Source of the DNA: Squalus acanthias | Taxonomy: Eukaryota | NCBI GenBank assembly: GCA_030390025.1 | Contig: CM059431.1 | Location: forward strand, 110,920,001 to 110,984,000 | Length of the DNA: 64,000 nt | Direction: 5' to 3' | Shown here: positions 4,715-63,302 of the stretch, in pieces | Layout: every line of letters begins with the position of its first letter | Position numbering within the stretch: position 1 is the stretch's first letter | Position numbers and translations under genes: made by a program | The notes under the pieces: generated by a model | What the model was told of the DNA's origin: nothing | Databases searched by the model: none | What the model saw: the letters and a program-made list of their open reading frames with translations, nothing else

Positions 4715-5479
4715 GGCCCAGAAATTGGACTTCGATGGTTGCCGCGGGGGTAAGGATCGTGCGCGATCTTACCTACCGCGCCTGCCTTTATGGTTTTGGC
4801 CCACACGAACTTCAGTTCCTGGGCCTCTCCCTGGTGCCAGCGCACAGTGTGTGCGTGTCCCAGAGGCGCAGTTAGTTCGATGCGACCTCTGGGATCACGT
4901 GGGCCATGGAGAGCCAATGGCAGCACACCATCTTTCATTCATAGTTTTGACAGGAAGAGCTGTCAAAACTATGAATACAACTTGCCCCCAAAAGAACAGC
5001 TAAACCTCAATTAAATTTAAAAAAAAACCCATCACATTAATAAAATAACTATAGTTAAATAAATTAACCACTATAAACAAAAATTTAAATTTTTGAAAAA
5101 ATTTAAATTCTTTTTAAAAGTTATAAAAATAAACTTACCTTTCTTTAAAGTCTCTAAAAAAGATAAACCTGTTGAAAAAAATTTAAAATAATACTTAATT
5201 AACTACTTACCTTGTTAAAAGGGGGTCTTACACCTCCTTTCTTCATGTGTAAAATCTTCAACACTTACCTTCGCGTTCAAACCTGAAAAAAAAACTAAGT
5301 GTGCTGCGTGCGCACAGCCTGTAGTGCGCACGCGGTTCACTTAGGAACCGCCCCTTCGCCATATCGGAAGTGCCAGTTTCCTGCGCATACGCAGTGCATG
5401 CAGGAAACCGGCACTTCGGGACCGAATATGGGTGAATACACAGTGCGTACTCTCCCGTATTCGGACGAATTTCTGGGCC
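4715..5479. mobile_element. MITE family A, copy 1 (Harbinger-type termini)
   Basis: Perfect 12-bp TIR GGCCCAGAAATT...AATTTCTGGGCC. Colinear with 12937-13680 and, inverted, with 15394-15578 + 19746-20326. Confidence 0.9.
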
Positions 5480-10009: not shown

Positions 10010-10520
10010 ATTGACAGGCACATTGCGAGAGCGTGGGGACATGGTGGACTGCTGGAAAAGAAAGGCATCATGACCCTTGCTGGGCAAGTGGACATTCACC
10101 TACGTTATCCTGTGCAGATAGTCACAGGGCTGCTGCTCATTGAGTAGAAGCCCTTCCGGCTCATGGATGGGCCTCATGGATGGAGTACTCCTCTGTGCTG
10201 GGAAGAAAAATCCTAGGATTCTCTTGTCCATGGGGAAAATGATGCGATTACTTACTCTTGTAAACAAGGCCCCAGTAACCTGCCTGATGCATCTGACTGC
10301 ACTGCAGACAGACTGATGTTAATGATGCCCATGCCGACAGCCTGGAAGGAGCCCGAGGCAATAATGTTCAAGGTGGCTGTGACCTTCAGGGCCAAGGAAG
10401 TGCCTGCCTGCCTTGAAGCTTGGCTGGAGGTCTTCCTGCAGGATATTGCACAAGTCTCTCACCATCTCCTTTGTGCCTGTGCATGCGTTGCTTTTTTGCC
10501 CAGTCACGATAATTGCACTG
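10010..10520 (-). pseudogene. Degenerate Harbinger transposase
   Basis: Across frameshifts the minus strand reads KEMVRDLCNILQEDLQP, LKVTATLNIIASGSFQA, CIRQVTGALF, RKGFYS and GHDAFLFQQST. Confidence 0.8.
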
Positions 10521-12936: not shown

Positions 12937-13680
12937 GGCCCAGAAATTGATCTCGCTCTGTTCCCGCGGGGGTAAGCCTTTCCCGCGATGTCTCACCTCG
13001 CTTATGCTTTTTCAGATCCAGCTCGCACGAACTTGATGTTCCAGACATCAGCTGTGCTGGGCTTGCGTATCCCAGCGGCGTAGTGAATTCGTGCGAGCTG
13101 TGGGATCACGTGACTCAGTTAGAGCCAATGGCAGCACACCATCTTCCATTCATAAGTCTCACAGCATGGCTGTGAAATCTATGAATCTTACACCCCCCCA
13201 AAATAACAGCTAAACCTCAATTAAATTTAAAAAAAAAAACATCACATTAATAAAATAAGTATAGTTAATTAAATTAACCATTTTAAATAAAAAATTAAAT
13301 TTTTGAAAAAATTTAAAATCTTTTAAAAAGTTATAAAAATAAACTTACCTGTCTTTAAAGTCTCTAAAAAAGATATACCTGTAAAAAAAAATTCAAAAAA
13401 ATACTTAATTCACTACTTACCTTCTTAAAAGCGGGTCTTACTCCTCCTTTTTACATTTCCAAAATCTTCCCTACTTACCTGCGCGTCCAAAGCATGAAGT
13501 GCACAGCGTGCGCGCAGCCTGTAGCGCGCACGCGATGCACCCAGGCCCCGCCCCCTTTTCAGAAGAGCAATTGCCGGTTTTCAGCGCATGCGCAGGGCAT
13601 GCAGAAAACCGGCAATTGGAGTGGGAATACGCGAGAGTACGCACTGCGTACTCTCGCGTCCCGGGATCAATTTTCGGCCC
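12937..13680. mobile_element. MITE family A, copy 2
   Basis: Termini GGCCCAGAAATTGA / TCAATTTTCGGCCC, flanked by AAT/ATT. Colinear with 4715-5479. Confidence 0.9.
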
Positions 13681-13892: not shown

Positions 13893-15309
13893 GGGGGTGA
13901 TTTTCGGCAGCGTGTTCAGGTGCTAATGATCCTCCGAGATGAGAGTCTTGAGCTGAAATGTTGGATTATTTTTTTTTAATTTGTTCATGGGATATGGGTG
14001 CCACTGGCCAGCATTTATTGCCCATCCCTAATTGCCCTTGAACAACTGTGTGGCTTGCTAGGCCATTTCAGAGGGCAGTTAAGATTCACCACATTGCTGT
14101 GGGTGGAGTCACATATAGACCAGACCAGGGAAGGACAGCAGGTTTCCTTCCCTAAAGGACATTAGTGAACCAGATGGGTTTTTACAGTTACCATTTTTAT
14201 GGTCACCATTACTGATACTGGCTTTTTATTCCTGATTTATTTAATTAACTGAATTTAAATTCCCCAGCTGTCGTGGTGGGATTTGAACTCATGTCTCTTG
14301 GATTATTAGTCCAGGCCTCTGGATTATTAGCCCAGTAACATAACTACTATGCTACCATTCCCCCATGGTTTAGCCCCGTGTTTAGTGCACAACGCCATCT
14401 TGGTAAAGGAGTTGAAGGCAGTGCTAGGAACGGTCGACCGGAGGTTCATTAAGGGGCTGATTGCCACTTAAAATGCCTGCTAGCACTCATTAAAGAGGCT
14501 GCACAGCATTTTGGTGACTAGAGCTTGCCTTAACGCTCTCTTCTAACAGCGACCAGCTGTATGGGAGTAAACACGGCGTTGATGTTGATTTCAAGCACTA
14601 TTTAAAGGGATACTCATCATGCTCACTAGCTGCTGGAGCTGTGAAGAGGACCTCTGAAACACGTCGGGAGACTTTCTGGGACACTTTGTCAAGACTTCAC
14701 CAACACTAGAGCAACATTTATTCTGCAAATTCTCTGAGGAATTCCCCCCCAAAATTGTAAGAGCTGTGCTACTCCACCCTACTGGACACCTTATAGGAGT
14801 CACCTGGAGAAAGGGAGTGTTTGGTCATGGGCATCGTGCTAGGGGTCCCGCTTAGTCTGCAGGAGGAATGGGAGGAGGAGATGAGGCCAGGCAGAGCAGC
14901 ACCAGCTGCTGCAGGAGAGAGGGACAGGAGCGCGAGGTGGCGTTCTTCCCCCCTGCGGTACAGGACATCCCTCCTCCTCTGTACCTCCTCCACCAGGACC
15001 TCCAGTGCCGTATCCGAGAACCTGTGCACCCTCTCCCTCGGTCCCTGAGCTATCCCGCGACATGTCAGTGTGTGCCAGCCAGCGCACTCCACACCTTCAG
15101 TGGAAGTGGGTGCGAGGAGCCCACATATAACCGCTCCACAAAACTTGAGTGCTTAACCTGCAGGTTTCTGGTTTAGCAAATTCAAATGATAATAAACAGC
15201 AATTAGGACCAAAATTATGAGCTAAATCCAGACTTTCAAACAGGCATGTCTTATTAGCATTGCACCCATTTTGCACCTGTTTTCACACTTGGGCCAAAAA
15301 AAAAACATA
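13893..15309. mobile_element. Internally deleted Harbinger: transposase 5' end (+) fused to Myb gene 5' end (-)
   Basis: Starts GGGGGTGATTTT with ATT on both flanks. Plus strand from 14828 reads MGIVLGVPLSLQEEWEEE. Minus strand 14940-15060 reads PRERVHRFSDTALEVLVEEVQRRRDVLY (Myb/SANT N-terminus). Confidence 0.75.
13970..14365 (-). mobile_element. Family-B tRNA-derived SINE, near full length
   Basis: Colinear with 306-755. A/B-box head lies at the right end on the minus strand. Confidence 0.8.
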
Positions 15310-16090
15310 TTCTCTGGATTATTAGTCCAAGGCTCTGGATTAATAATCCAGAGAATGTGAGGTTGAATCATATTATTACCAGTAATCAGTCTTGGGCCAA
15401 AAATTCGGCCCTTGCCAGGTGAGTACGCACTGTGTACTCACCTGTAAGGCATCCTGAAGTGCCGGTTTCCTGCATGCACTGCGCATGCGCGGGAAACCGG
15501 AACTTCCGGTCTGGTGAAGGGAGCGGTTCAGAGGTGAACCGCGTGCACGGTAGAGGCTGCGCGTACGCAGCAAACTTAGGGGTAAAAATTCAGTTGGTTG
15601 CGCCTCCCGTTAGCGCCTTAAGAGGGCGCTAATGGGGTGCAAAGCCGCTAGCGCCTGGGCGCAGCGATGTTTGCGCCGCTCGGGAACTTAACTAGACATT
15701 GTGCGGCGGCGCTAAACTTTACCGCCGCGACCACCTGCGCGCGCAGATTGTGACGTCATTCCATGGTGCAACGCCCTTGTGGCGCCCCGGAGCGGAAATT
15801 GAGTGGCGCCCCCTGCCTTACCGCCTGGCGCATCCAACGACCGGAAGACTGGAACGCTATCAATCGATGTGGGGCTGGGGGGGGGGGGGCGCTATTTAAA
15901 GGGGGCCTCTTCCTGTCTTTTTCTGTGGTTGACATTTTTGCACCACTCGTTCTGAGAGAGAGAGATTCGGAGAGAGAGAAAGAGAGACTTCTGCATTGAG
16001 TCAACGCTTTGTGAGGTAGTTTTGCCTACTGATCCTAACTTCGCTGCTACTTTGGTTGCTGTCCTTCATAACTTTGCTTGCAAAGAGACT

Positions 16091-17251
16091 ATGGGGGCTG
16101 CACTGATTGGGGGCGTCGTCCTGCTCCAGCTGAATCGGAGGACACAGAGATGCAGAGAGAGAGTGGCAATGATGGCCAGACGGAGGAGGGCCAACAGGCG
16201 TATGTACAGGAGAGCTTACCCTCCCAGGGTATATCGTGAACAGCTCTCCTACATTCATATGTCTGAGGAGCTGTGTTTGCGAAGGCTGCGATTCAGCAAG
16301 GAGGTGGTCACTGAGCTCTGCCACCTGCTGCAGCCAGATCTGCAGCCTCAACTGAGGTCCAGGACGTCTCTGTCGGTGGCAGTGAAGGTCACAGTGGCTC
16401 TCAACTTCTATGCTACTGGCTCATTTCAAGCTGCTGCTGGGGACCTCGCCAATATCTCCCAGTTCGCGGTGCATTGCTGCATCCGGCAGGTCACAAATGC
16501 CCTCTTTAAAAGGAGACGAGAGTTCATCTCTTTCCCCATGACCCTAGACAAGCAGCGTGACCGCGCTCTGGGCTTTGCGAGGATAGCGGGCTTCCCCATG
16601 GTGCAGGGCGCCATTGACTGCACGCATGTGGCTTTGCGTGCTCCACATGAGAATGCCGAGGAATTCCAGAACAGAAAGGGGTTCCATTCCTTGAATGTTC
16701 AGTTGGTCTGTGACCACAGACAGCTGATACTCGCTGTCAATGCCCACTATCCTGGCAGCTGCCACGATGCTTTCATCCTGCGTCAGACTACTGTGGCAGA
16801 ACTTTTCGAGGCACCGCATCAGCCAGTTGGTTGGCTTCTCGGGGACAAGGGGTATCCATTGAGCACCTGGCTGATGACACCGCTCCGTACGCCCAACACC
16901 CCTGCTGAGCTGCGGTACAACGAGAGCCATCAAGCTACCAGGAACATCATTGAGCGCACAATCGGCGTGCTGAAGCAACGGTTCTGCTGTCTCGACCATT
17001 CTGGAGGAGCCCTGCAGTACTCGCCTGAGCGAGTATCCAACTTTGTAGTTGTGTGCTGCATGTTGCATAACATGGCAATCGTCAGGACCCAGCCAATGCC
17101 ACCAGGTCTTGGAGCACCACCAGAGGAGGAGGAGGAAGAGGAGGAAGAGGACGAGGAGGATGATCATCAGCAGCACCAAGGCGGGAGGGCGGCCCACAAT
17201 GGTGAAACTGAAAGGGCCGTCCGTCAACGGCTGATAGCAAGCCGCTTCTAG
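16091..17251 (+). CDS. Harbinger DDE transposase (HARBI1-family), 386 aa from the first ATG
   Basis: Motifs VTVALNFYATGSFQ, GAIDCTH, NRKGFHSLNVQLVCD, HDAFI, LLGDKGY, IERTIGVLKQRF, CCMLHN and an acidic tail. D-D-E residues present. No stops or frameshifts. Confidence 0.95.
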   Translation: MGAALIGGVVLLQLNRRTQRCRERVAMMARRRRANRRMYRRAYPPRVYREQLSYIHMSEELCLRRLRFSKEVVTELCHLLQPDLQPQLRSRTSLSVAVKVTVALNFYATGSFQAAAGDLANISQFAVHCCIRQVTNALFKRRREFISFPMTLDKQRDRALGFARIAGFPMVQGAIDCTHVALRAPHENAEEFQNRKGFHSLNVQLVCDHRQLILAVNAHYPGSCHDAFILRQTTVAELFEAPHQPVGWLLGDKGYPLSTWLMTPLRTPNTPAELRYNESHQATRNIIERTIGVLKQRFCCLDHSGGALQYSPERVSNFVVVCCMLHNMAIVRTQPMPPGLGAPPEEEEEEEEEDEEDDHQQHQGGRAAHNGETERAVRQRLIASRF

Positions 17252-17563
17252 GGCCCCTGCTGTGGAAATGGCTTCTGCCATTGCTAACAACATCAATCAA
17301 CCCAGCACGCAACCCCTAAGCCGGCCAAGGCACCAATGATTCCAAACACCAAACATGTATATTTTGAATACAAAAACTTATTTATTTTACAAACTCTGTG
17401 TGTGTCATTTCCTCATGACAAACTGATAGAAATAAACACAAAAAAACAGTCATTAACATAACTGGTTCTCACAACCTGGAGATAATGTCCAAAACACTCG
17501 ACAAAAGTTGGACCACGAACCTCGGCCTTTAATAAAAAAATGACCAGCATTTTGTCACACCTC

Positions 17564-19383
17564 CTACTTTTTGCCCTTCGAGGGTGATCTCCTTCCCTTG
17601 CGCACTTCCCCCCTTCTAACCCTACTGCTCCTCCGTAATGGGACCTCAGTGGCTGCAGCAAGGCTGGTGGAAGGCTGCTGATCGTCAGACCCTGACACTG
17701 CAGATGCCCCTGAAGGACGGCCTCGACCAGTTCTGGGCCTGGAGGGCCCGGCTGCAGACTGCACCAACTCTGCATGGGCGGCAGCAGTCTGTCCTACAGG
17801 CGGTGGCAAGTGCAGTGGAGAAGTGACAGTGTTGGCAGCAGGAATGCTGTCATCGTGAGAGAGGACAGCAACTCCCTGCTCGCCCGACACACTGGCACTC
17901 CCACGGGGCAGCACTTCAGCATCCGGAGCAATCTGCTGGAGCACAGATTGCTGGCCTGCTGCGGCGCGGTGAGAGCCCCGGGGACATGTGAATGAACCAT
18001 CGAGGTTGGCAGCAGTCAGTGCTCGCGTGGCCTCAATCTGAGTCTGCATGAGAGCAGTCAGAGATGGGATCACGGCAGTCAGTGACTGAATTGCAGCACT
18101 AAGCCTTAGTGTGGCATCCGCCTGTGCTACAGCGAAGTGCTCCACACTCCTTGCCAGTGACTCAATGCATTCGGGCACCCTTCCCACTGCACCCATGAGC
18201 TCAGTGTGCATGCCCACCGCCTGGGTGTTCATTTCTGCGATCAGCCGCTCCTCCTCTGCGTCCATTGCAGTAGGAGTCTCTGGCATACTCTCCCTCTGGG
18301 GAGAAGGCCCCCGTTCTTCCCTACCCCCATGGCGTTGCTGCAGCCCGCTGGGTCCTGGAGCTTCACCCTCATCAGACCCTTCCCCCCTGCTCCCCTCCAG
18401 GGAAGGCGTGTTCCCAGTGTGGGCATGGGCTTCCTCGGGAGAGGGTGGCACTGATGCTCCAGCTTCCTCTTCCTCCTCGGCTGCAGCTTCACTCCCACTG
18501 GCAGCTTCAGGGCCCGTCTCCTCAGTTGGTGAATCACCATCTGAAAGCAGGGAGGTACAAGAGTGGCTTTAGCGTGAGAACAGGGTGGCAGTAAGGGAGG
18601 AATAAGTGCAGCGAGTTAGCAAGTTATATTGAAAGTGTCAAAGGCTGGTGTTGTGAGGGACAAGTGGAAGGACAGAGGACAAAAAGGTGATGACCTTACC
18701 ATTGCTGTCCAGAACGGGGTCGGCGTCTCCAGTGGCGACGGGACCGATCACCCGGCTTGCCACAATCCTGTGGACGCGCTCCTCAAGATCGCTGAGGGGT
18801 TGCAGCTGAGGCCGCCCTCCACCTGTCCGTTGCTGCTGTCTCCGATTATGCGCCAGCTTGGCCTGCAAGAAAAAGGACAGCATCTGAGTAAATATACAGC
18901 CATGGTCTTGCCTGATGTGCCTCCCATAGGTGAATAGCCCTTACTCTATGCAGCCATGGTCTTGCCTGATGTGCCTCCCATAGGTGAATAGCCCTTACTG
19001 TATACAAAGTGTGGAATGTGTGTGTGTGTTTCATGAAAGGGCCATAGGTGTTGGATGAGTGTTGTGCATTGGGGTTTTAAGACCCTCTGGCCATAGAGTG
19101 AGGTTGAGATGGAGGGATGGAGAGGTATTGAGAAAAAGCCACTCACCCTGACGACCCGAGTGAGGTCATTGAACTTTTTGCGGCATTGAACATGGGTCCT
19201 GGGCACCATGCTCCTGGAGGAGACGCTCTGAGCCACCTCCCTCCACACTCTTCTGTACTCGCGTGGCAAAGGCCTCCTGCCACTCTCAGGGAAGAGCATA
19301 CATCTTCTGCGCTCCACCGCGCCAACCAGAGCATCCAAGGCCCGCTCGGTGAAGCGCTGAGCTCGTTCTCTCACCCTCTCCAT
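17564..19383 (-). CDS. Harbinger Myb/SANT-like DNA-binding protein; join of 19383-19147, 18862-18700, 18540-17564; 458 aa
   Basis: Exon 1 encodes RFTERALDALV...LFP...W.EVA..V....RTHVQCRKKFNDL. Introns GTGAGT..TTTTTCTTGCAG (phase 0) and GTAAGG..CTGCTTTCAG (phase 1). Exons sum to 237+163+977 = 1377 nt in frame. The same exon 2 length and acceptors occur in copy 2. Confidence 0.9.
18897..19004. repeat. 54-bp tandem duplication in intron 1 of the Myb gene
   Basis: CAGCCATGGTCTTGCCTGATGTGCCTCCCATAGGTGAATAGCCCTTACT begins at both 18897 and 18951. Confidence 0.9.
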
Positions 19384-20944
19384 CCTTGGCAGCAAAATGG
19401 ATTCACAGGTCTCTCCAGGCCGAGATTCAAGGCTGCAATGAGCAGGGTGTGGCTGGGGAGCAAGTTGCCCCCCCCCGCTTTAAGAACTGGCCGGCGCCAG
19501 TGTGTTTGTGTTCCCTCGCTAACTGGCAGCACCTGCGCTGCGCTCGCGCGCTGAGTTAGCGCCTCACTGCTCGGCCTTTGCGCCTTAAGACAGGTGTGCA
19601 GCGCCTGATTTAGTGCTCCACTCACCTCCCGGGGCGGTAAAAGTGAAGTTTCCAGTCAGTGGCGATAATTAGCGCCAGGCGCTAATATTTGCGTCCAGAC
19701 GATATTTGCGCCCCAAACGGGGCGCGACCTAATTTTTCCCCCTTATGGTTTTTTTTCAGGTTTCTACGGGAAGGTAAGTATTGAAGAACCTACGCTTTTA
19801 AAAAGGAGGCGCAGGACCCGTTTTCAATAAGGTAAGTGGTTAATTAAGTATAATTTAAAATTTTTTTCAACAGGTTTATCTTTTTTAGATACTTTAAAGA
19901 AAGGTAAGTTTATTTTTAGCACTGTTGAAAAGTATTTTAATTTTTTCAAAAATTTAAATTTTTGTTTAAAGTAGTTAATTTATTTAACTTATAGTTATTT
20001 TATAAATGTGATGGGTTTTTTAAAATTTATTTGAAGTTTAGCTGTTCTTTTGGGGCCGATTTCAATTCATAGATTTGATTGGTCTTCCTGTCAAATCTAT
20101 GAATGAAAGATGGTCTGCTGCCATTGGCTCTCCATGGCCCACGTGATCCCAGGGGACGCATCGCACTAACTGCGCCCCTCAGACACGCAAGCACTGCACG
20201 CCGGCACTTGGAGCAGGCCCAGGAGCTGAAGTTCCCGTGGGCCCAGAGGTCAACGGCAGGCGCGGTAAGTAAGTGCGCGCGCGATCCTTACCCCCGCGGC
20301 AAGCCGGAGAGGCGAATTTCAGGGCCATTATACATAAAAAGAAAGCTAAAAAGCAGCATTTTATATATCGGTACAATCAGCATTTAGATCTAGCAGCTGG
20401 TTCTGTTAAATCCAGAGGTCAGAAGAACCTTAGCTCATTATTAGCTGCATTTATGATGTCACTTTTGTAAATGGCTTCAGTATGTGCTGTTAATTCACTC
20501 CAAGTGACTGTGCATGCAGACAAGGTCTGATGGTGTTTCATCTGAAGAAGGTGGTGGTGGTTGAGGAATGTGGCAAAATCAATGGAATTTAGTTTTGGAG
20601 CTGCACTTTCTGCTGCTTCTTTGATTCTAGATTTCAGAGTAATGCACTTGAATAGCAGTAAATTATTGAGCTACTAATTTGGAAAGCGCAGAAAGGGCGC
20701 AACCAGTGAAATTGTGCTTTTAAGTGTAAGAGCAACATTAATTTTTTTTTAAATAACCTAGAATTTCGATAGCTATATCCGTAAGGCACCATTTTAAACT
20801 CCCGATATAATACTTTTGCGATCGACACATGTTCTGATTCACGCAATCCTCGGGCCGAAATAGTGCACAGTGTCATTCACCTGTGTATGGTCATTCCTAT
20901 TTGAACTTATGGGCTTGGGATAATTAGGAATGCTGGGGGTTAAA

Positions 20945-22895
20945 AATGCACTGCAAACTGCGAGATGTTGCTTATATCTCCAGCAGCAGCCTGGAAGGAG
21001 CCAGGCGCATAAAAGTTAAAATCCGCAGTCACCTTGACAGCCGCAGGCAATGCTGTCCTTGCCCTGCTTTGAGGTTGCAATTATGGTTGCAGTAGTTGGC
21101 AGATATTTTGTAAAGTGAAGACGTCACATGCATTGGCCCTCGCTGAGGTTGAGGTAAGACAATTGCTCCCTATAGACGCTCGGTGGATATGGCCTCCTGC
21201 TGAGAGCCCTTCTCCCCTCCTCCTCCTCCTCCATCATCCAGCAGCATGTCCTGCTCTGCGTGGCCTCTCATCATTCTCCCAGTCATGCTCAATTCCCAGA
21301 GGGAGCCTTACCAGGCCACACCTGTCTGGAAGCAACTTGTTTCAGCACAAGCTTTTAAATGAACAGAAAAGTCCTTCAGCGCCAGCCAGATCACTCCCTG
21401 CAGACGATTCAAACTTTAGCCAAGTATAGGAAAGCTCCAAAAACACGTACAATTGTACCAGCAGTCAGAAGAAATAATCCAGCAACTAACCTGTAAGTAG
21501 TTCATGATCCCTGTAAATAGTGCTGGTGGGGGTGTCCTTCATTCCATTTAACATTGTGTTGAGCTGTGCGAGGTTAAGACTGGAGTGTGGAGCTCAAAAA
21601 TGGCAGCACGAGTGTCAAATCTGTAAAGTTTCCAAAATTTGCAGATCCCCAAAAATCTAAGGAAAAAGACTTTGGAACTACCCCAGAGTGATAAAAATGC
21701 ATTTGGGCCTAACAGAAGGAATTTAAGACCAAAACCAAGCTTTGGCATTTTAAAAGGCTGGAATTCAAGCCCCAGCAAACATTAACATTTGGACAATAGG
21801 CCCTGGGAGAAGGCAGCCCCACCCAAAACACAGAACCCATTAAAGAGACGCATAAAGATAGGAGTGCTAGGCCCAGCAAGAAACCCAAAACACGAGGACA
21901 ATGCAAACTCCGATTAAACAACAGATCGACAGGACGCAAGCCATTTGACACTCAGTAAAAAGCCGTTACTGGTAACGAGGTCTTTCAATGACCAGGATTT
22001 GATTTGGTTTAGCATAATTGAAGGCCCATCAAGCAGTTACAACAGTTCAGTAAGAAGAGAGTTCAGAACATTTTAACACCAAGTTAAACCCATCAAAACT
22101 TAACAAGCCTGCAAAACCAAGACAATGGAATGAACAGGCCTCAACTGAAACCAAATCACTTCAGCACGAAACCATTTTTAGTAAGGGGTTCTGGGAGCGA
22201 AAAAAAGAACAAGGAGCTGAACAAGTATAAAAGGGGGGCCTAATTCCCCAAGAGGCCCTCTCTCCGGACTCTCCCTCTCGGCTCTGTTCCAGAAGCAGCA
22301 CGTTCCAGGAAGACACTCGACGACCAGATCACCATCAACTTACCTGGCTGGATTTCGCACTGTTAAAACCCTTGTTTGGTGAGCATTATCCCTGATCTCC
22401 TGAAACCGAAACCTAGCTAGATAGTGGGATCTTTGGGAGGGATAAGGGTTTTTGTATATTATCATTCTCCCTCACCTGTACCGTGTGTTCCCCAACCTGT
22501 TTAAGTGTGAAGTGTGTTTTAAGTTTGTTACCTTTTTCTTTTAATAAAAGTCAAAATTCTTTCATCGGAACCTGTTGTCTACTGCATCTTTATTCACAAC
22601 CCCTAAATAAGTCCAAGTTTTGAACCTGGGGCGTGGGAGCGATTCGAACCGCTCACTGAGTCAGGGGTAAGGCTGACCCCTACCACCACCACCCCCTACA
22701 AATCAGCGTTGTACACTGGTTGACGTCATAATCTGCCTGCTCTGCATGCTGCCAGCAGTCCTTAGGTGCGCCGGCGCAAACTCCTTTACCAAATCCTGTT
22801 GGAAGTGTGCGCATTCATCTTGGACCCTATTTTTGACTGTTAGATGGGCATGTAGCACCTAAAAGACGGGCACTACACAACCCAATTTAGCCCCT
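20945..22895 (-). mobile_element. Harbinger relic (transposase N-terminal part 20945-21330 plus 5' end), interrupted by a solo LTR
   Basis: Minus strand reads RRPYPPSVYREQLSYLNLSEGQCM*RLHF..LQPQSRARTALPAAVKVTADFNFYAPGSFQAAAGDISNISQFAVH. Terminus AATTTAGCCCC near 22895. Confidence 0.8.
21622..22700 (+). mobile_element. Solo LTR (1079 bp) of an LTR retrotransposon or ERV
   Basis: TGTA...TACA termini, 4-bp TSD AATC (21618-21621, 22701-22704), TATAAAA at 22226, AATAAA at 22543. Confidence 0.88.
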
Positions 22896-24814: not shown

Positions 24815-26430
24815 CGGATCGAGAGCCGATTTAGGTCAACAGTGTCGCCCCCACCACCTGGCTCCAGTATCGAAAGAAGCTTCATGATCTCAGACCACTG
24901 GTCATGGTCAGTGAATGCATCTTCAAAAGCCGTCTCCTACCAACTGCACCACTAGCCTCACACACTGCTCACTGCACGACCCCCGCCCCCAATCACTCAC
25001 CTACCAGCAATCTGCACCAATCGCGAGGCACTTCTCCCATTCCTAGCCTCACCTTACCTCCTTGGAGGAGATGGTGCAGGCCATTCTTGGCAGGAGCATG
25101 GCTAAGCCCTTGGCCCTCATCTTCATACATTATCCTCCTTCTGGCATGCACCTCTTGCTTTCCTGCCCTCCCCTCACCACAACTCCACCCTTGTGCCTTC
25201 CTCATTTCACACACCCAAGAAATGCAGCCTGCCCAGCCAGTGGTTGGCCAAGAAGAGGGAGAGGAGAGTGAAGAAGAAGAAGAAGAAGAAGAAGAAGAAG
25301 AAGCACCGTCACTCGATTTGACACTCCCAGCCACCAGCTGCTCAAGATCGACCAGCAAGGCCATTTGAAGTCCCCCACTGAAAGTAAGCAGCCTTCCACC
25401 AGCCATGCTACAGCCACTGGGGTAGCACTGCGTGACCTCACTAGGATAGGCAAAGGCACACACAAGACAGTCATTAAGAGAATTCATAAGGGTGATGTGT
25501 TGATTTCTGATGTCACATTGGATGGATAGACGTATATAGGCAGATTGGAAAATTTGCTTTGTGGTGGCTTTTATTTCAGCATTGTGGCCAAGAGGACGTT
25601 GTGATGGTCAGTAACAGAGGGAAGGTAAGGTGTGGGACTAATGCTGAAAGGGGAATTGGGGCTGTGGTCACTGGGACCACAGGCGGATGATTCCATCCCG
25701 GATATCCCGGCCACAAATGGGCAGTCTGGGATGCATCCTTCCGTACGATTCCTCCTCTTCGGCGTCCTCCTCTTCCCTCTGCAAGCGGGGATGTTGTAAA
25801 TGTGAAATGACAGCGTGAAATGACAATGTAAAATGCTGGAAATACTCAGCTGGTGAAACAGCACCTCAACCTGAGACGTGGACTCTTTTTCTCTCCACGG
25901 ATGTTGCGTGACCTGCTGAGTATTTACAGCATGTCCTGTCTTCTCAAAGGCCTTCAATTACCTTCCGAGCTCTTGAAAATATCCAGCAGCACTCCCTACA
26001 TACTTAAAAAAAACTTTCCACATCGATTGCAGCAGGCCACCACTTCAATAAAATAAAAATAAAAAATCCAAAACCATAAATCCAAACTTACATGAATGAG
26101 GTGTGTGTCCCTTTAGGAGGTGCAGATTTCGCCTCTGTCAGCCTGCTTGCACGCCAGGTTAACATGGCATGTTTAGGTCCCAACGCTGAATTCAGCGCTA
26201 GGGTCGAAGTTAGCGCTTGCGACGTAAAGTCGGCGTTGAACTTCGATTTACGTCACAACGGCGCCATTTTGCTGGAGATGGCACTGCCAGTTACCGGCAA
26301 CGCAAAGATAGGGACCAAAATGGTGGCTGCCGCGAGGCCCGACAGCAACTGGCGATAGAGCAGCGGCCGCCGTTTTAGCGCCAATTAGTGGTGCTATGGA
26401 GTGGCGCTAAGGCCACGAATTTCTCGCCCT
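24815..26430. mobile_element. Harbinger relic: Myb gene exons on +, transposase 5' region on -
   Basis: Plus strand reads TWLQYRKKLHDL followed by a GT donor, then LTSLEEMVQAILGRS, then an acidic exon with (GAA)n. Terminus GAATTTCTCGCCC at 26430 with TAGCGCC/GGCGCTA motifs. Confidence 0.7.
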
Positions 26431-34532: not shown

Positions 34533-36280
34533 GGCCAAGATTTCGCTGACCTCGGTGGGTGACGTCGGTGGCGGGTCGCGACCCCGCTGCTGTCTCCATC
34601 CAGCTGTTCGAAATGAATTTCCGTTGATTGGGCTTGTTAAACCCGCCCTGCGCATTTCCCGGCCAATTAGAGGAAGTGGGTCTGGTGACATCATTTGATG
34701 ACGTGTCATCAGCCGGTTTCCTTAAAGGGACCATGGTCAAATTTATTTTGACATGTGTGCTGTCAGTGTTCTACAGCATTGAGGTTCTGCAAACACTGAC
34801 AGTCACTGCACAGAGGCAGAGGGCTGCACCCAGGCTCTCCCATGACTCCCTCCATATGCTTATGAGGGAGTCACAGCACGCAAGGAGGTCCTCTTCCCTT
34901 CCCATGGGTGGAAGAGACCTCCCCAGGAGATCAACACAGCCTGCTTGCACATTGCAGAGGAGGGCACAAGCAGGGATGTGGTCAGGAGAACCTGGGTGCA
35001 GTGCTGCAAACGTTTCAATGATCTCAGTAGATCACAAAACGTTAGTACAAAGCCACACTCGACCTCATCCTTCTGTGCCTCTCATCACATCCCCATCACT
35101 CTGCCTTCCCTACCCTACTTCTGCACATCCTTACTCACACCAACTTACCTTGCACCTCCACCCATCCCTCTCTCTCTATCTATATTATCACAACCCCATC
35201 TTACTAGCCACCCCTCACACTCACCCTCACCATCATACCAATTAACAACACACAAGGGTAGGCACTTGAGTGATTTATGCAATGTTCATGTAAAGTTTCT
35301 GTTAATGTGGTGTCAAACTTTGAAACCTTTATTTTCAACACTTTCCATTCTTGGACTGATTTGTGTGCACCTTTGGAAGTGGCTTAGTGAGTTGCAGTGA
35401 ATGGTGAGACATAACGGTATCCCCCGCAATGGTGATGAGTGTGAAAGGAATGGCTTGGACATTGTAGGGATGCTTTATGGTGCTGGTGTGGGGTGGTGCC
35501 AACCTGGTGCATCATGTGGCAGCCAGGGTGTACAGCATCAGGTGAAGTAAATTTGGCCATGCTGAGGCCATCCCTGGCCTCCCAGGCAGCAATGTGGTCG
35601 GGTGCTGATGCCCTCTGTCCTGTGCAATATCAGTTGATTGCGGAGAAGGTTGGTGTTGATGTTGGTGCTGCTGGTGTTCCTGGTGATGCTGGTGTTGGGG
35701 CTGATCGTGGTGGGATTCTGAGGACCAAGGTGAGAGAGTATAAAGGGCAACCATGCTGATAGAATAGATGGCAGGTGAAGTAGAGATGACAGAAGTGATC
35801 TGTCAATGGTGAGAGAGGTAATGAGGTCAGACTGGATGGAGACTTGTGTAAAGACTTGCATCATGGTTGTGGAAATGCAGTGAGGAAGGGCTTGTGGCTG
35901 AGGGAACATGTCTCACTCAGCTGGGAGCTTTTACTTGACATTTGAAGCTGTCAACTCATCAGCTGATTCAATGGCCACTGACCTCCCGCCTCAGCTTCAC
36001 AGACGTGGTCTGGCAACAGCGTGAAACCCGTGGGTGACCTGTCAAATTCAAAAGGTCAGTTTAAAACTATTGTTAAGTGGCTGTAAACAAGCCACTAATC
36101 ATTTAAATTGGCTCCCCCGCCGCTGTGTGTCGGGTCTGCTCAGCGCTGGCAGACCCGACATTTGGTAAAGGCGCGTAGCGGTAGGTTCACAGCTGGGCCC
36201 CGAACCGTTGGGGAAAATAATCACTTTCCCACCCAACCCACCACCGATTGCGCCCGCTGACCCCCCGGAAAATCTTGGCC
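34533..36280. mobile_element. Non-autonomous Harbinger (1748 bp) with a Myb/SANT exon-1 remnant, inserted in a Deu-SINE
   Basis: Perfect 11-bp TIR GGCCAAGATTT/AAATCTTGGCC and TAC TSD (34530-34532, 36281-36283). Plus strand ~34810-35040 reads RAAPRLSHDSLHML..RKEVLFP..RRTWVQCCKRFNDL with one frameshift. The SINE sequence GTGACTAC|ACTTCA is split at the site. Confidence 0.9.
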
Positions 36281-42599: not shown

Positions 42600-43904
42600 T
42601 CTCAAATTTAGGTCAGATGCAGCACAAAGAGGACACCTCTTTAATCAGATACAAAGCCAATAATCATTACTAACCTCTTGGATACTGAAGTTCGGGAAAC
42701 ATAGATAATTGATCTTAATGATCCTAATTAATCACCAATCTTAATTAATACTAATTGATTTCCCATGGCAATAGTGTCCTAGCTTTGTGGGTCACTTAGG
42801 TGCATACCATGAAGCTTCAGGCAACATAAAATTTAACTCCATTGTCCCATTACTTTGCATATATCTAAACTTGCTGATACTGACAGATCTTGGTGTCCTA
42901 GTTTAGGATGTACCCACCAGTGAGGCAACAGTGAGGAGAACATCCTTTTCCAACTCTCCAGGCCCACAAAATCCAAGTAACAAAGTAGCAAACCAGAAAT
43001 ATGAGTAGAAATTGGACGGAATTGCCTGGGCTTCATGGGATATATTGCTGGGGCTTGGGGCCACAAGTAAACCACAGGCCATAGTTTAGACATTTCTGTC
43101 CTATCGCATTGCTCTCAGAAAAAAAATCTTTCTTTTCCTACAGCTGTCTCTCTTGTTTTTTCTTACTCTCTAATTCTTTGTGTCAGTCTCTCTCTGTCTT
43201 TCTGTCTGTCTGTCTTCCACTCTTTTGTTCCTCTCTTTGTATGGTCCTCACATACACCTCTCATTGCCTATTTCATTCATTGTCTCTAATTCTTTTTCTC
43301 AATCCTTTTTAGTAAAACTCTAAGTTGCTACCTCTCCACTCACTTTTGTGTGTCACCCAGTCTCTCCATATAGTTTTCATGTACGTCCCTTTGCTGATGT
43401 ACTTAGAGGGAAAAATTCGGTTGGTTAGCGCCGCCCGTTAGCGCCACTGGGGAGGGACGCTGACGGGGCGCTAACGACTTACCGCCCGTGCGCGGTGATT
43501 TTAGCGCTGCCGGCAAAATTGAAATGGCGGTTTGCGGTGGCGCTAAACACTACCGCCACGATTTCCTGCGTCCGGAGATCGTGACGTCATCCAAGCACAC
43601 AGCGCTCCGGTAGCGCCCCAGACTGGAAATTGATTCTCACCCCCTGCCTCAGCGCCTGCCGCTAGGAACGACAGGTAGAGGGGGACGGTTTTCAGTTGTT
43701 TGGGAGCTGGGGGAGCGCTATTTAAAGGCGTGCGCGACCTGTTTTTTCTCGTCGGCAATCAATTCTGCATATGCAGGTTGAGAGAGGGAGAGAGGCATCT
43801 GGAGACATTTAATGCTATCCTACTTAAAGGAGATTTGGTCGTCAGCAAGACTTATCAGGTTCCCATTTCTGTACCTTTTAGTACTACCACATTTAGAAGG
43901 TTTA

Positions 43905-45081
43905 ATGGGGGCTGTACTAGCACGGGGCCTCGTTCTCCAGATTCACTGTCGGAGGCAGTGGAGGCGGAGAGAGAGTGGAAAACGTGGCCAGAGGGAGGAG
44001 GGCCAACAGGCCTCTGCACAGGAGACTTTATCCTCCCAGGCTATTCCGGGAGCAATTCTCATATATCCATCTGTCCGAGGAACAGTGTTTTAGAAGGCTC
44101 CGCTTCAGCAAGGAGGTGGTCACTGAGCTCTGGCACCTCCTGCAGCCAGAGCTCCAGCCTCAGCTCAGGATCAGGACATCTCTGTCGGTGGCAGTGAAGG
44201 TGACGGTGGCTCTCAATTTCTACGCCAGCGGGTCCTTCCAGGCTTCAACGGGGGATATTGCGAACATCTCCCAGTTCGCTGTTCATTGCTGCATCCGGGA
44301 AGTCACAAATGCTCTGTACAAAAGGAGAAGGGAATACATCTCATTCCCCATGACTCGAGACAAACAGTGTGAACACGCATGTGGCTTCGCTAGGATAGCG
44401 GGCTTTCCTATGGATCAGGGCACCATTGACTGCACGCACATGGCATTGCGGGCACCTCATGAAAATGCAGAGTTTTTCCGTAACCGCAAAGGCTACCACT
44501 CTCTGAATGTTCAGTTGGTGTGCGACCACAGACAGCGCATCCTCGTCGTCAATGCCCGCTATCCTGGCAGCAGCCACGATTCATTCATCCTGCGCCAGAC
44601 TGGTGTCCCAGACCTGTTCCAACCACCGCATCAACCTCGTGGATGGCTCCTCGGGAACAAGGGTTATCCACTCTGCACCTGGCTGATGACACCGCTCCGT
44701 AACCCCAACACCCCTGCTGAGCCTGCATACAATGAGAGCCATAGTGCCACTAGGAACCTCATTGAGCAGACGATCGGCATGCTGAAGCAACGGTTCCGGT
44801 GTCTTGACCACTCTGGAGGAGCCCTGCAGTACTCCCCTGATCGGGTGTCGGTTTTCATTGTTGTGTGCTGCATGCTTCACAACCTCGCAATTCTGAGGAC
44901 CCAGCCATTGCCACCAGGGATTGGTGGACTACCTCAGGAGGAGGAAGAGGGAGAGGAGGAGGAGGAGGTGGAGGAGCAGGATTAAGAGGAGGAGGAGCAA
45001 CAACAACGTGAGAGAGAACCGCTCAATGTTGCTTCTGCAAGGGCCGTTCGTGAATGCCTCATAACACAGCGCTTCCAATGA
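43905..45081 (+). pseudogene. Harbinger transposase pseudogene
   Basis: ATG at 43905 (MGAVLARG). Frameshift in a (GA)n run near 43970. Catalytic GDKGY is changed to GNKGY. Premature TAA at 44983-44985 precedes the natural end (QRFQ*). Confidence 0.92.
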
Positions 45082-45696
45082 ATAACAGAGAAGATGGCAC
45101 TTGAGATCAAGAGCTACATCATTATAGCCAGCTCGCAGCCCCTATGACTGGCCAAAGTTCCAATGAGAAACATGAGGAAAATTATAACCTTTAAATAAAT
45201 ATTTTTATTCTCTGAACAACTGTGTCTTACACAACCAATAACAAACAAACACAACAATTTATTTACAAAGACAACTGGTTCTTAGCACATCGAAATAATT
45301 CTTAACAAAGAGAATAAGATATTTACAAACACATCCCATCTTTGGTACAAACACTCCCCCCATCTGTTCGAAAAATGTTAGTTAGTGGGCCTTCTTCAAT
45401 GATCTCCCTCCCCTTCGCACTTCCCCCCCTTCCCCCCTCCCAACCCTACTGCTCCTCCGTAATGTGGCCCCAGTGGCTGCAGCAAGGCTGGTGGAAAGCT
45501 GCTGAATCTGGGAGCCAGAGACTGCAGACGGCCTTGCAGGACCCCCTTGGCCAGCTCTGGGCCTGGAGGGCCCGACTGCAGACTGCACCACCTCAGCATG
45601 GGCGGCAGCAATCTAGGCTGGCTGGGTTACAGGCTGTGGCAAGTGCAATGGCGGAGTGGCAGTGGTGGGAGCAGGAATGCTGTCATCCTGAGAGAA

Positions 45697-46241
45697 AAAT
45701 GAGAAGTCGCACAACACCAGGTTATAGTCCAACAGATTTATTTAATTTTACAAGCTTTCGGAGCTATCGCTCCTTCGTCAGGTAAGTTAGCAATGAGAGA
45801 ATCTCCCAGAATTCACAATTTAAACCCAGACAAAATCTATTCACATTATTCGCTACAACAAAGAGCACAGCCAAGACAATGAGATGTGTCCCAGGGGGTC
45901 CAGCGTGTCAAACCACCTGCTGGCTGCATATCCTGTCAATTTGTGTTCTTGTGTTTTTAAAAAAAAAAAACACCTGGGAAGACCGGCCATGATGTCAAGT
46001 CACGTTCTGTATCGTGACATGAACCCGATATCGCGATTGAGGCCATCCTCATGAGTGCGGAACTTGGCTATCAGTTTCTGCTCTATGATTTTGCGCTGTC
46101 GTGTATCTCGAAGGCCGCCTTGGAGAACGCTTACCCGCAGATCCGAGGCTGAATGCCCCTGGCTGCTGAAGTGTTCCCCGACTGGGAGGCAACCCTCCTG
46201 CCTGGCGATTGTTGCGCGGTGTCCGTTCATACGTTGTCCGT
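45697..46241 (-). mobile_element. 5'-truncated Penelope-like retroelement (GIY-YIG endonuclease C-terminus plus 3' LTR)
   Basis: Reads QRMNGHRATIARQEGCLPVGEHFSSQGHSASDLRVSVLQ...RKIIEQKLIAKFRTHEDGLNRDIGF. 14-bp TSD TCATCCTGAGAGAA (45683-45696, 46242-46255). Confidence 0.92.
45748..45785 (-). ncRNA. Minimal type I hammerhead ribozyme motif of a Penelope LTR
   Basis: UUAC CUGACGA A GGAGC gaua GCUCC GAA AGCU U GUAA. Confidence 0.75.
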
Positions 46242-48719
46242 TCATCCTGAGAGAAGACAGCACTTTCCTGCTCGACTGACACACTGCCACTCCCCCGGGG
46301 CAGAACCTCAGCATCCGGAGCAATCTGCTCGAGCACAGATTGCTGGCCTGCTGCGGCACTGTCAGATCCCCGGTGAACAGTGGTTGCCCCAGCTATGATG
46401 GCAGCAGTCATCGCTTGCGTGGCATCAATCTGAGACTGCATCAGAGCACCAACCAATGACTCGATTCCAGCAATTAAACCATTGCGTTGCCTCGGCCTGT
46501 GCTGCAATAGATGCTGCCACCTCACCCATTACACGTGACATGGGGTCTGGGTCCCCACGGTCTCTCTGCAAGTCAACCATCCTCTGCAACGAGACAAGGA
46601 TGGGTTCAATGGTTTGCGCACAGATGACAGCTGTGCTGGCGGCGGACTCCTCCATGCTCCTAGCCAGTGCATCCATGCTGTCGGGCACCCTTGCCATTGC
46701 ACCCATGAGCTCAGTGTGCATGTTCATCACCTGAGTATTCATTGCCGCCTTATCGAGGTCCTCATCTGAGTCCTGTGCAGCAGAACTCATGCGCGCACTC
46801 ACCCTCCGGGCAGATGGCCCCCGAGCTTCCCTTTCCCCATGGCGTTGCTGCAGCCCACTGGGTCCCGGAGCTTCACCCACATCAGAGCCAATTCCTCTGC
46901 TCCCCTCCAGTGACGGCGTGGCCCCAGTATCTGATGTGTCGCCCTCGGGAGACGCAGGCAGTGAGGCTTCAGCTTGGTGTTGCTGATCCTCTCCCGCGTC
47001 ACTTCCACTGGGAGGCTGAGAGACAGTCTGGTCAGCTGGTTCACTATCTGAAAGCAGGAAGGCACAAGAGTGGCTTTAACGTGAGGGGAGGAGGGCAGGC
47101 AGGGAGCAAGGAATGGCGACAGTATACTTAGATAGAAAGTGGGAAGGGCTTGTGTTGTGAGGGGGAAGTGGTATGAGAGAGGAGGGAGAGATGATGAACA
47201 TACCGTTGCTGTCCCCAAGAGGGTCGACCTCTCCAACTGCCACAGCGCCCATGACATGGCTTGCGATTATTGTGTGCATTCGCTCCTCCAGCTGTGTGAG
47301 GGGGTGCAGCTCTGCCTGACCTCCTCCCGTGCGTTGTTGCTCCCTCTTGTTATGAGAAAGCTTGGCCTGCAAGAAAAAGTACAGCGTGTGAGTGAGTTTG
47401 CAGCCATGTGTTTGGCAGAAGTGTCTACCATAGTTGAATAGCTCTTAATGTCTGCAGGGTGTGAGATGTGGATGTGACTTTTAGTAGATAGGCATAGTTG
47501 TTGGGTGAGTGTTGGGGATTTGTCAGTTTATACCATCTGTGCACAGAGTGAGGTTGAGATGGTGGGACGTAGAGGTATTTCAAGCATGTGAGGTCGTTGA
47601 ACTTATTGCGGCACTGGGTATGAGTCCTTTGGACCAGGCTTCTGGACAAGACGTACTGGGCCACCTCCCGCCACACCCTTGTGAACTCCCGGGGCAATGG
47701 CCTCCTGCCAGTGTCTGGGACAGCACTGCCCATCGGCGTTCCACTGCCACAACCAGAGCCTCCAATGCCTGGTGGCTAAACCAGCGAGCTCTCTCCCTGG
47801 GCCTCTGAGCAGCCATGATATTCGTGTTTCAAGAATTGCACCTCCTTGCAGGCCCAGGTCAAAAGCAGCAATGATCAGAGTGAGGCTGTGCAGCATGATG
47901 GACCCTCCCCTTTAAGAACTGGAAGGCGCCAGTCTGTCTGAGGACTAGGTAATTGACAGCACCTGAGCTTGAGTAGCGCTCTGAGGTAGTGGCCCGTTCC
48001 CCATTGTTAGCGCCCTAAGAGCAGTGTGTAGTACTAAATTTAACGCTCCAATAACATCCAGGGGCGCTGGAGACGAATTTTGCGATAATTTGCGCCAGGC
48101 GCTAAATTTTGCACCCAGCCGATACCGAATTTTTCCCCCTTAATTTCTACCTTTTGCAGTTTTTAAAATCCAGTGTATGCAGCAAGTTTTACTGCAAGAT
48201 AAACGTGTACTGGATTGGCGGTGGCTATCAGGCAGGGTGAGACTGCCCAAGTGTTGCTGGAACACACATTAGTGGAGAAGAGTGTGAGGGAGCTGACAAA
48301 AGAGGCCCGGGATGCAGTGGAGTGGCTGGGACCGGGAGACAGCTGAGGGGGAGGCGTTGGAGTTCAGGATGGCTCATGGGAGGCGGCATGTGGGGGAGCA
48401 ACATCCTGGGGCTGCTTACATTCCTTGATACATTAGTGTTAGGTGTCCATCAGCAATACCACTATGCCCTTATGGTTTAGTAGTAGGTGTGAGCCCACAT
48501 CACAGACGGTCTAGCCATCTTACATCAACTTCTGATTCGGGGGATGTGACCTGGAAGACCTGGGATTTGGAAAGTGTGTGGGGTTGGAGAATTTGGGGGA
48601 TGGGATCTGGGATTACTGGGGAGTTAGAAATCACTTTAGAGGGCTTCGATCTGGGAGTACTGGGGAAGCTATCTCTGGGCTCGGTGTGTGAACTTGGTAC
48701 TGCTGGAGTTTGGTCATGT

Positions 48720-55482: not shown

Positions 55483-56436
55483 AACAACAACAACAACAAC
55501 TTGTATTTATATAGCGCCTTTAATGTAGTAAAAAGTCCCAAGGCGCTTCACAGGAGTATTATAAGACAAAAAATTCGACACTGAGCCACGTAAGGATAAA
55601 TTAGTGCAGATGACCAAAAGCTTGGTCAAAGAGGTAGGTTTTAAGGAGCGTCTTAAAGGAGGAAAGAGAGGTAGCGAGGCGGGCAGGTTTAGGCAGGGAA
55701 TTCCAGAGCTTAGGGCCCAGGCAACAGAAGGCACGGCCACCAATGGTTGAGCGATTATAATCAGGGATGCTCAAGAGGGCAGAATTAGAGGAGCGCAGAT
55801 ATCTCGGGGGGTTGTGGGGCTGAAGGAGATTACAGAGATAGGAAGGGGCGAGGCCATGGAGGGATTTGAAAACAAGGATGAGAATTTTGAAATCGAGGCG
55901 CTGCTAAACCAGGAGCCAATGTAGGTCAGCAAGCACAGGAGAGATGGGCGAACAGGACTTGGTGCGAGTTAGGACACGAGCAGCCGAGTTTTGGATGACC
56001 TCAAGTTTACATAGGGTAGAATGTGGGAGGCCAGCCAGGAGTGCATTGGAATAGTCAAGTCTAGAGGTAACAAAGGCATGGATGAGGGTTTCAGCAGTGG
56101 ATGAGCTGAGGCAAGGGCGGAGACGGGCGATGTTACAGAGATGGAAATAGGCGGTCTTTGTTATGCTGCGGATATGTGGTCGGAAGCTCATTTCAGGGTC
56201 AAATATGACACCAAGGTTGTGAACAGTGTGTTTCAGCCTCAGACAGGTGTTAAGGAGAGGGATGGAGTCAGTGGCTAGGGAACGGAGTTTGTGGCGGGGG
56301 CCGAAAACAATGGCTTCGGTCTTCCCAATATGTAATTGGAGAAAATTTATGCTCATCCAGAACTGTATGTCGGACAAGCAGTGTGACAATTTAGAGACCG
56401 TGGAGGGGTCGAGAGAAGAGGTGGTGAGGTAGAGCA
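55483..56436 (-). mobile_element. L2-clade LINE, 5' truncated (RT C-terminus)
   Basis: CLSDIQFWMSINFLQLHIGKTE...NLGVIFD...HAFVTSRLDYSNALLAGLP...LHWL with a (TTG)n tail. Confidence 0.92.
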
Positions 56437-63198: not shown

Positions 63199-63302
63199 CT
63201 TGGCAGGGGGATGGGATACGGAGTGGAGCTATAGTAGGGGATGATGCACAGCCAAATATAGAGGAAAAAACAAGTCAGCCTGGAAGGCAGAGCAAATATG
63301 TA

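Follow-up and report, generated by a model that had tools for sequence, protein, structure and literature searches.

A complete two-gene PIF/Harbinger transposon copy from a high-copy family in Squalus acanthias

Introduction

The Harbinger3_DR work in zebrafish is reportedly that of Sinzelle et al. (2008), and the work on the coelacanth Harbinger is said to be that of Smith et al. (2012). Harbinger3_DR is described as a two-protein system that was reconstructed and assayed and that duplicates CWG within AAACACCWGGTCTTT (PMC2836001, PMC9392472, PMC3016246), and the coelacanth Harbinger as a high-copy transposon of a slowly evolving fish genome, with ongoing accumulation and expression (PMC5381603, PMC9179366). 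Han et al. 2015 listed 88 families as "potential active" on the criterion that both ORFs are intact, and reported a mean element length of about 4124 bp (PMC4482050). Harbinger-Snek of sea kraits has 269 intact copies in L. colubrina and 1 in L. laticaudata, with RNA-seq on both genes; its activity was inferred rather than assayed, and the element was reported as a case of horizontal transfer (PMC8437027). Vertebrate Harbingers that are both intact and transcribed have thus been reported before (PMC8437027, PMC9179366), and the weight that an earlier, sequence-only reading of the present locus gave to a candidate natural vertebrate Harbinger is overstated to that extent. With regard to cartilaginous fish, no Harbinger was found in the elephant shark and a survey of other species was requested (PMC9179366), Tourist/Harbinger elements have been named as the most common DNA transposons in a reef shark (PMC12498223), and no dedicated study of the superfamily in sharks or rays was found in the main texts of the literature searched.

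Here we describe a two-gene PIF/Harbinger copy of 4164 bp at 15579..19742 of a 64,000-nucleotide stretch of Squalus acanthias DNA (the window). The copy shares with PIF/Harbinger (PHIS) elements (PMC4482050) a TWA duplication, two ORFs, a short G-initial terminal inverted repeat and a length near their mean, with no defining difference. It resembles Harbinger3_DR in its two-protein design and palindromic target context, but is a natural copy with a TTA duplication, whereas Harbinger3_DR is reconstructed and duplicates CWG. By its description, Harbinger-Snek is likewise a vertebrate Harbinger of very high abundance, some copies of which keep both genes intact, and horizontal transfer was reported for it, in contrast to the long residence suggested for the shark family; the coelacanth Harbinger is likewise high-copy, in another lineage.

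Results

Structure and insertion site. The features of the locus are given below by position and strand (where applicable), with the evidence in brackets.

15394..15578, left part of host element (repeat comparison, paralogue)
15576..15578, left target-site duplication TTA (sequence; empty site in paralogue)
15579..15594, plus strand, left terminal inverted repeat (13/16 bases match right end)
15598..15714, six subterminal TWGCGCC motifs in both orientations, putatively bound by Myb/SANT (motif search)
16091..17251, plus strand, transposase ORF, 386 aa, D176-D252-E288 (translation, Pfam, alignment, structure model)
17564..18540, minus strand, partner exon 3, 977 bp to stop (translation; junction 18540/18700 in run X10)
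18541..18699, minus strand, partner intron 2, 159 bp, GT-AG (boundary grid; reads in X10)
18700..18862, minus strand, partner exon 2, 163 bp (translation; dN/dS 0.22 against copy 2)
18863..19146, minus strand, partner intron 1, 284 bp, GT-AG (boundary grid; copy 2 and protein homology)
19147..19383, minus strand, partner exon 1, Myb/SANT domain, 79 aa (translation, Pfam)
19557..19706, five subterminal TWGCGCC motifs (motif search)
19727..19742, minus strand, right terminal inverted repeat (sequence)
19743..19745, right target-site duplication TTA (sequence)
19746..20326, right part of host element (repeat comparison, paralogue)
43406..48139, plus strand, copy 2, a related subfamily (69-84% identical by segment)

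The inverted repeats, GGGGTAAAAATTCAGT and GGGGGAAAAATTAGGT, start with GGGG and differ at 3 of 16 positions, in keeping with PHIS repeats (usually <60 bp, A or G first). The element landed inside an older non-autonomous element, 766 bp once rejoined, and a paralogue of this host at 4715-5479 of the window carries a single TTA and no insert at the matching place, as a TWA duplication predicts. Because of this lone TTA, and because copy 2 shares the ends, is likewise flanked by TTA and keeps three of the four splice sites, the structure is more than chance; the repeats and duplication proposed in the sequence-only reading are borne out. Copy 2 and a summed contig depth four orders above that of unique flank mark the element as interspersed and multicopy, and we confirmed it as a complete two-gene PIF/Harbinger DNA transposon copy.

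The target context is AAAC-TTA-(T)GGTT at the element and ACAC-TTA-GTTT at the paralogous empty site. The NuwaI/NuwaII target (CWG, or C-TNA-G) is absent from both insertions, which read C-TTA-T at the element and C-TTA-A at copy 2; the paralogous empty site, C-TTA-G, fits the NuwaII pattern, so that NuwaII, judged by target alone, is less strictly set apart. Empty-site joints were present in 4/4 public runs examined, with joint sides of at most 41 bases that are not assignable to this locus, and were rejected as evidence of insertion polymorphism because paralogous host elements yield an identical joint. A role as mobiliser of local MITEs, which had been suggested, was also rejected: the element has 12 TWGCGCC motifs, as opposed to none in 3/3 copies of the host family, and no deletion derivatives of the Harbinger ends occur in the window.

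Transposase. The frame runs from ATG 16091 to the stop at 17251 with no internal stop, as the sequence-only reading had it, matches Pfam DDE_Tnp_4 (E 2.5e-39), and retains the catalytic residues and the R284-E288-K295 helix. In a structure model (pLDDT 91), D176 is placed in strand 171-182, D252 after strand 248-250 and E288 in helix 271-297, so that Pfam and model both indicate a DDE_Tnp_4-type DDE transposase. The top Foldseek rows were DDE transposases and integrases, none at E 0.001, and a PDB sequence search matched no solved structure, its hits being confined to the acidic tail and attributable to chance. The protein fits 134/137 conserved columns, closer to consensus than any other of the 77 sequences in the comparison (columns drawn from its own best hits, which biases the count in its favour), and 53/56 columns conserved in distant relatives. 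Copy 2, by contrast, has its second catalytic D replaced by N and a frameshifted, interrupted partner gene.

Two substitutions had been flagged as possibly impairing, RFCCL and GSCHD, where copy 2 indeed reads RFRCL and GSSHD. GSCHD was rejected as a lesion, its C occurring in 18/115 close and 6/55 distant relatives; RFCCL is still suspect on comparison with relatives. In distant relatives whose catalytic residues are intact, Q193 occurs in 0/55, C299 in 0/55 and E374 in 1/51, and Q193 and E374, which had been overlooked, appear more suspect than GSCHD.

Of the 120 best homologues, 112 come from cartilaginous fish; the best in the searched collection, P0001 of Pristiophorus japonicus, has 71% identity, with none above. 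Close homologues are spread over many shark and ray genera, a distribution that points to long residence. Runs of organisms C, D and E contained 53-54% of the element's words, and two further runs of organism E contained none, which suggests possible mixing or mislabelling of E; none of these three organisms was counted when distribution or horizontal transfer was weighed.

It is very improbable that the pair was domesticated and kept by the host, like HARBI1/NAIF1. Both genes are intact and chondrichthyan homologues of the same transposase family are labelled "putative nuclease HARBI1," but this name is automatic and does not imply domestication, and most such entries are truncated or decayed gene models. 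The locus is also not a conserved single copy free of inverted repeats and target duplication; both are kept, and the element is nested in a repeat, very high in copy number, matched by a paralogous empty site and marked by neutral-looking private changes.

Myb/SANT partner gene. From ATG 19383 to the stop at 17564, the joined exons encode 458 aa. In a grid of 8 x 9 x 7 x 8 boundary positions, 19147/18862 and 18700/18540 were the sole GT-AG pair for both introns, and exon 1 matches Myb_DNA-bind_5 (PF13873, E 1.1e-09), which upholds the three-exon model of the sequence-only reading and supplies the Myb/SANT second ORF typical of PIF/Harbinger. Two chondrichthyan proteins, P0009 and P0121, bear the Myb region and align ungapped over the exon 1/2 join; exon 1 had 1 match among 227 longer proteins, and exon 3 had none at E 0.001 among 8000 candidates. 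Intron 1 contains a tandem duplication of 54 bp, starting near 18897 and missing from copy 2. A helical region 38 aa shorter than in copy 2 was rejected as a private deletion, since an X10 contig covers 17989-18212 ungapped. A complex prediction of transposase residues 20-340 with the helical exon 3 stretch scored 0.00 with a poorly folded partner and carries no weight either way.

Junction reads, proposed earlier as a check, bore out one of the two joints. Junction 18700/18540 was spliced in X10, a putative RNA run of related organism B (2 contigs, depth 90) and one of two such runs compared, and this spliced joint was absent from both DNA runs (X1, X2); junction 19147/18862 was not among the 15 best-supported of 127 joints. 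The reads show intron-2 splicing for the family and are not assignable to this copy. The gene model is supported, one junction by reads and the other by protein homology. Seven presumed RNA runs contained family sequence (52-55% of words). In the putative RNA runs compared for splicing, unspliced molecules predominate (a contig over the intron-1 donor has depth 383).

Copy number and divergence. Summed contig depth per bin over the element was 250,000-1,800,000 in X1 and 390,000-1,900,000 in X2, against 13 and 9 for unique flank. Even a 31-fold overcount would leave at least several hundred copies (627 in X1, 1,438 in X2), and the family probably numbers hundreds to thousands.

Divergence from consensus had been put forward as a further check; measured against the majority letters of the public DNA runs, the element is about 0.4-1.2% divergent, and its own coding letters are mostly nonsynonymous. 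Among the best 40 of 295 differences, ranked by support, 18 sites have another letter at ≥80% of depth in both runs, two of them in the intron duplication and possibly placement artefacts. The coding differences, a small and selected count, comprise 5 nonsynonymous and 2 silent changes (7 and 2 if two weaker sites are included), which fit neutral change (P 0.30) and not the dN/dS of 0.14 that separates copy 1 from copy 2 (P 0.03 and 0.004). Minority nonsynonymous letters lie at L152, Q193, E374 and within the partner gene. The letters that the window has at 17044 and 18526 reach depths of at most 44 and 0.1 in X1 and 14 and 0 in X2, at or near single-copy level, and no sibling clade is visible at the most diagnostic sites in the contigs of these runs, which drop rare variants. 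Since its letters are in the minority, mostly nonsynonymous and in part at or below single-copy depth, there is no indication that the element gave rise to a burst. In a neutral simulation, both genes stayed open in 22-37% of copies at 0.5% divergence and 5-14% at 1%, so that intactness alone is no proof of activity.

We consider it probable (about 0.7) that this is a genuine full-length copy of an abundant, low-divergence family that has mutated without selection since insertion and whose frames are intact by chance.

The differences might instead mark a small young subfamily, or partly be assembly errors, in which case the copy would be younger than it appears; we regard this as quite unlikely. 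Non-majority letters account for 2-19% of depth at several sites (8-19% at 15638, 15726 and 16047) and could reflect a real subfamily, and the window letter at 18526 is missing in both DNA runs although both contain the unique flank. A transposing subfamily should, however, show purifying selection, whereas the coding differences here are mainly nonsynonymous; CpG-type decay accounts for 3 of the 18 sites, and about 297 bases of unique flank show 0-1 differences. A substitution error rate of 0.4% would be high for a chromosome-scale assembly.

That the element works in its present form and is today an autonomous source of transposition is also unlikely. Both ORFs, the DDE triad and its helix, four canonical splice sites, the terminal repeats and the subterminal motifs are intact, the transposase is close to consensus, and the family occurs in putative RNA runs with intron 2 spliced in X10. 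Against this stand the minority nonsynonymous letters, C299, the mismatched repeats, the missing sibling clade, the mostly unspliced molecules and the divergence itself, which, if converted with the rate reported for the epaulette shark, 7e-10 per generation (PMC10587355), would correspond very roughly to 3-17 million generations, the rate being that of another species and CpG sites mutating faster. Of the earlier proposal of near-autonomy, the complete two-gene element and a transposase near the family norm stand; intact frames, expected by chance at 0.4-1.2% in a family of hundreds to thousands of copies, do not argue for it.

Discussion

In this family, the two convergent genes would yield two proteins, the DDE transposase and, after splicing, the Myb/SANT partner. 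By analogy with zebrafish Harbinger3 (PMC2836001, PMC9392472), the Myb/SANT protein may bind both the TWGCGCC motifs and the transposase and carry the latter into the nucleus; the subterminal clustering of the motifs is observed, and their binding is predicted. The transposase would then excise the element and insert it at TWA, leaving a 3-bp duplication; the duplication and the empty site are observed, and the chemistry is presumed.

Whether or not this copy moves, elasmobranch genomes can carry abundant, well-preserved Harbingers. It is doubtful, though conceivable, that the high-copy family is still mobile and that unmodified copies transpose, which would make it the first vertebrate PIF/Harbinger shown to be active without reconstruction. 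If the unmodified pair does transpose, it would provide a native vertebrate two-component system for studies of the Harbinger mechanism and might also serve as a tool for gene transfer whose target preference is longer.

Structure of the element and of its two genes

Features on which the analysis bears
15579-19742, Harbinger copy 1, with a TTA triplet on each side
16091-17251, plus strand, transposase ORF, 386 aa
Minus strand, Myb/SANT partner gene, exons of 237, 163 and 977 bp, 458 aa when joined
15394-15578 and 19746-20326, halves of the host element interrupted by copy 1
43406-48139, copy 2, a second Harbinger of a related subfamily
8-183, 10037-10474, 14934-15038, 20946-21210, 24835-25368 and 34870-35031, Harbinger fragments

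Copy 1 has all testable defining features of PIF/Harbinger elements, and the inverted repeats, TTA duplication, unbroken D-D-E transposase and three-exon partner gene proposed in the sequence-only reading were confirmed. The left and right ends agree at 13 of 16 positions; the transposase matches Pfam DDE_Tnp_4 (E 2.5e-39) and carries D176, D252 and E288; and for the partner gene, whose exon 1 matches Myb_DNA-bind_5 (E 1.1e-09), a scan over a grid of nearby boundary positions gave no GT-AG solution other than the one proposed. Read-through of intron 1 leads to a stop after 145 aa, and this intron is supported because P0009 and P0121, two chondrichthyan database proteins that include a Myb region, align gap-free across the exon 1/2 join. 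In an AlphaFold model of the transposase (mean pLDDT 91, built on 74 sequences), the predicted positions of the catalytic triad agree with the PHIS transposase as described in PMC4482050; a Foldseek search with this model ranked DDE transposases and integrases best and returned 0 rows at E 0.001.

Insertion site and relationship to the local MITE

With copy 1 excised in silico, the flanks rejoin as a 766-bp non-autonomous element. Two copies without an insert, at 4715-5479 and 12937-13680, are 83% and 75% identical to it, respectively; the former has a single TTA at the point matching the insertion, which confirms the target duplication. Members of this host family measure 744-766 bp and have the ends GG(G/C)CC..AAATT; the family also carries three donor-like AAGGTAAGT motifs (19771, 19829 and 19901; 5141, 5213 and 5271 in the paralogue at 4715-5479). 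Target flanks are near-palindromic in both copy 1 (15572-15578 / 19743-19750, AAAC-TTA-(T)GGTT) and copy 2 (43399-43405 / 48140-48146, GTAC-TTA-ATTT).

The window holds 34 instances of TWGCGCC, a putative binding site of the Myb/SANT partner, with 12 in copy 1, 8 in the copy-2 ends and 14 elsewhere; 11 of the 12 copy-1 motifs lie within 190 bp of the ends and the 3.6-kb interior beyond 15894 is free of them, whereas the three host-family copies contain none. This difference speaks against the earlier suggestion that copy 1 mobilises the local MITE, which appears to belong to another family.

Occurrence of the family and evidence for splicing

Among the best 120 homologues listed, 112 were named from sharks and rays (top identity 71%), and the host appears to be a cartilaginous fish. 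Of the 23 read runs listed, 18 contained at least half of the words sampled from the element; the top runs (organism A) contain 76-82% of them, a share that places at least 0.6% of copy-1 bases outside every copy there. Runs labelled as four other organisms hold near-identical family sequence (53-66% of 31-mers, approximately 1.3-2% divergence). Contigs were compared in detail for four runs, the DNA runs X1 and X2 and the runs X9 and X10, guessed to be RNA. Element depth in X1 and X2 was four orders of magnitude over unique flank, which suggests several hundred copies or more, even assuming 31-fold overcounting.

Of the two splice junctions proposed as a check, 18540/18700 (CT..AC) was found, at family level, in X10 (organism B; two contigs, depth 90) and in none of X1, X2 and X9, while 18862/19147 did not appear in the 15 of 127 joints listed. 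An unspliced contig crosses the intron-1 donor at depth 383, and since coverage of the introns is about as deep as that of the exons, read-through without splicing, or DNA, may account for much of the read signal.

Divergence and age of copy 1

The best 40 of 295 differences from the runs were listed, 32 of them inside the element; at 18 of these 32 the majority letter (at least 80% of depth in both DNA runs) differs from copy 1, two of the 18 falling in a 54-bp intron duplication where artefacts are possible. Long low-difference contigs differed at 6 of 760 bases (X9) and 23 of 1836 bases (X10); those with 12-16 differences were set aside as presumed members of related subfamilies. Copy 1 therefore lies about 0.4-1.2% from the family majority. 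In the transposase the coding differences are L152, Q193, E374 and two silent sites; in the partner they are T139 and T288 and, less clearly, M29 and D420. The resulting 5-7 nonsynonymous versus 2 silent changes, a small and selected sample, fit neutral change and not a dN/dS of 0.14. At 17044 and 18526 the window letter amounts to a few single-copy equivalents at most, and hence no sibling clade is visible in the contigs, which drop rare variants.

In a neutral simulation with CpG bias and indels, scored for intact genes, triad and splice sites, 22-37% of copies remained fully intact at 0.5% divergence and 5-14% at 1%; many open copies are therefore expected without any selection. At the epaulette-shark mutation rate of 7e-10 per generation (PMC10587355), the divergence corresponds to some 3-17 million generations. 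Rough as it is, this age speaks against the insertion being very recent.

Of 133 distant relatives examined, 55 have their catalytic residues intact; Q193 was found in none of these and E374 in 1 of 51. Of the two motifs flagged as possibly damaging, RFCCL is suspect, given that C299 occurs in 0 of 55 (R in 34), while GSCHD is tolerated (C224 in 6 of 55). Pointing the other way, the transposase retains 134/137 and 53/56 conserved columns.

Copy 2 and other remnants

The dN/dS between copies 1 and 2 is 0.14 (transposase core) and 0.22 (partner exon 2), indicating that both lineages were under selection while transposing. Copy 2 has N at the position of catalytic D252, and its partner gene has a frameshifted exon 1, a lost intron-1 donor, an insertion in exon 3 (approximately 540 bp at 45700-46240) and approximately 38 extra residues in the helical region. 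The partner-gene introns (18541-18699 and 18863-19146) align well with copy 2, though exon-2 synonymous sites are near saturation (dS 1.1).

Decayed transposase and Myb fragments represent at least five further remnants in the 64 kb. Additional Harbinger-type ends (GGGGGAGAAATTCG, GGGCGAGAAATTCG) lie at 24272 and 26429 (minus strand) and 1385 (minus strand); that at 26429, with two adjacent TAGCGCC motifs, may be the end of a related family, its matching partner end not being found in the window. ORFs at 60717-61439, 62245-63198, 63174-63689 and 55904-56443 resemble what we take to be CR1/L2-type LINE pieces (esterase-like ORF1, endonuclease and reverse-transcriptase flanks).

Comparison with known Harbingers and state of the copy

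Intact vertebrate Harbingers are already known. Harbinger-Snek, like copy 1 an intact two-gene vertebrate element, is present in Laticauda colubrina as 269 fully intact copies, and in L. laticaudata RNA-seq covers both of its genes (PMC8437027). Teleost Harbingers are transcribed (PMC9179366), those of the coelacanth are cited as still accumulating (PMC5381603), and 88 families with two intact ORFs were already on a 2015 list (PMC4482050). A nematode PIF/Harbinger was reportedly caught inserting (bioRxiv 10.64898/2026.05.26.728016). A literature search, with most subscription journals and Repbase outside its scope, turned up neither a study focused on shark Harbingers nor one demonstrating activity of an unmodified vertebrate Harbinger.

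Two convergent genes encode the transposase and the Myb protein, with intron 2 spliced at family level. By analogy with Harbinger3_DR, as summarised in PMC2836001 and PMC9392472, the Myb protein would bind the element ends and the transposase and import the latter into the nucleus, where the element would be excised and then inserted by the transposase. The convergent genes, family-level splicing of intron 2, TIRs, clustered motifs, TTA duplication with its empty site and past purifying selection are directly supported. Copy 1 is a real, well-formed Harbinger, ordinary in kind; better copies probably exist within its family and the evidence leans towards quiet decay, yet it would make a reasonable candidate for an activity assay.
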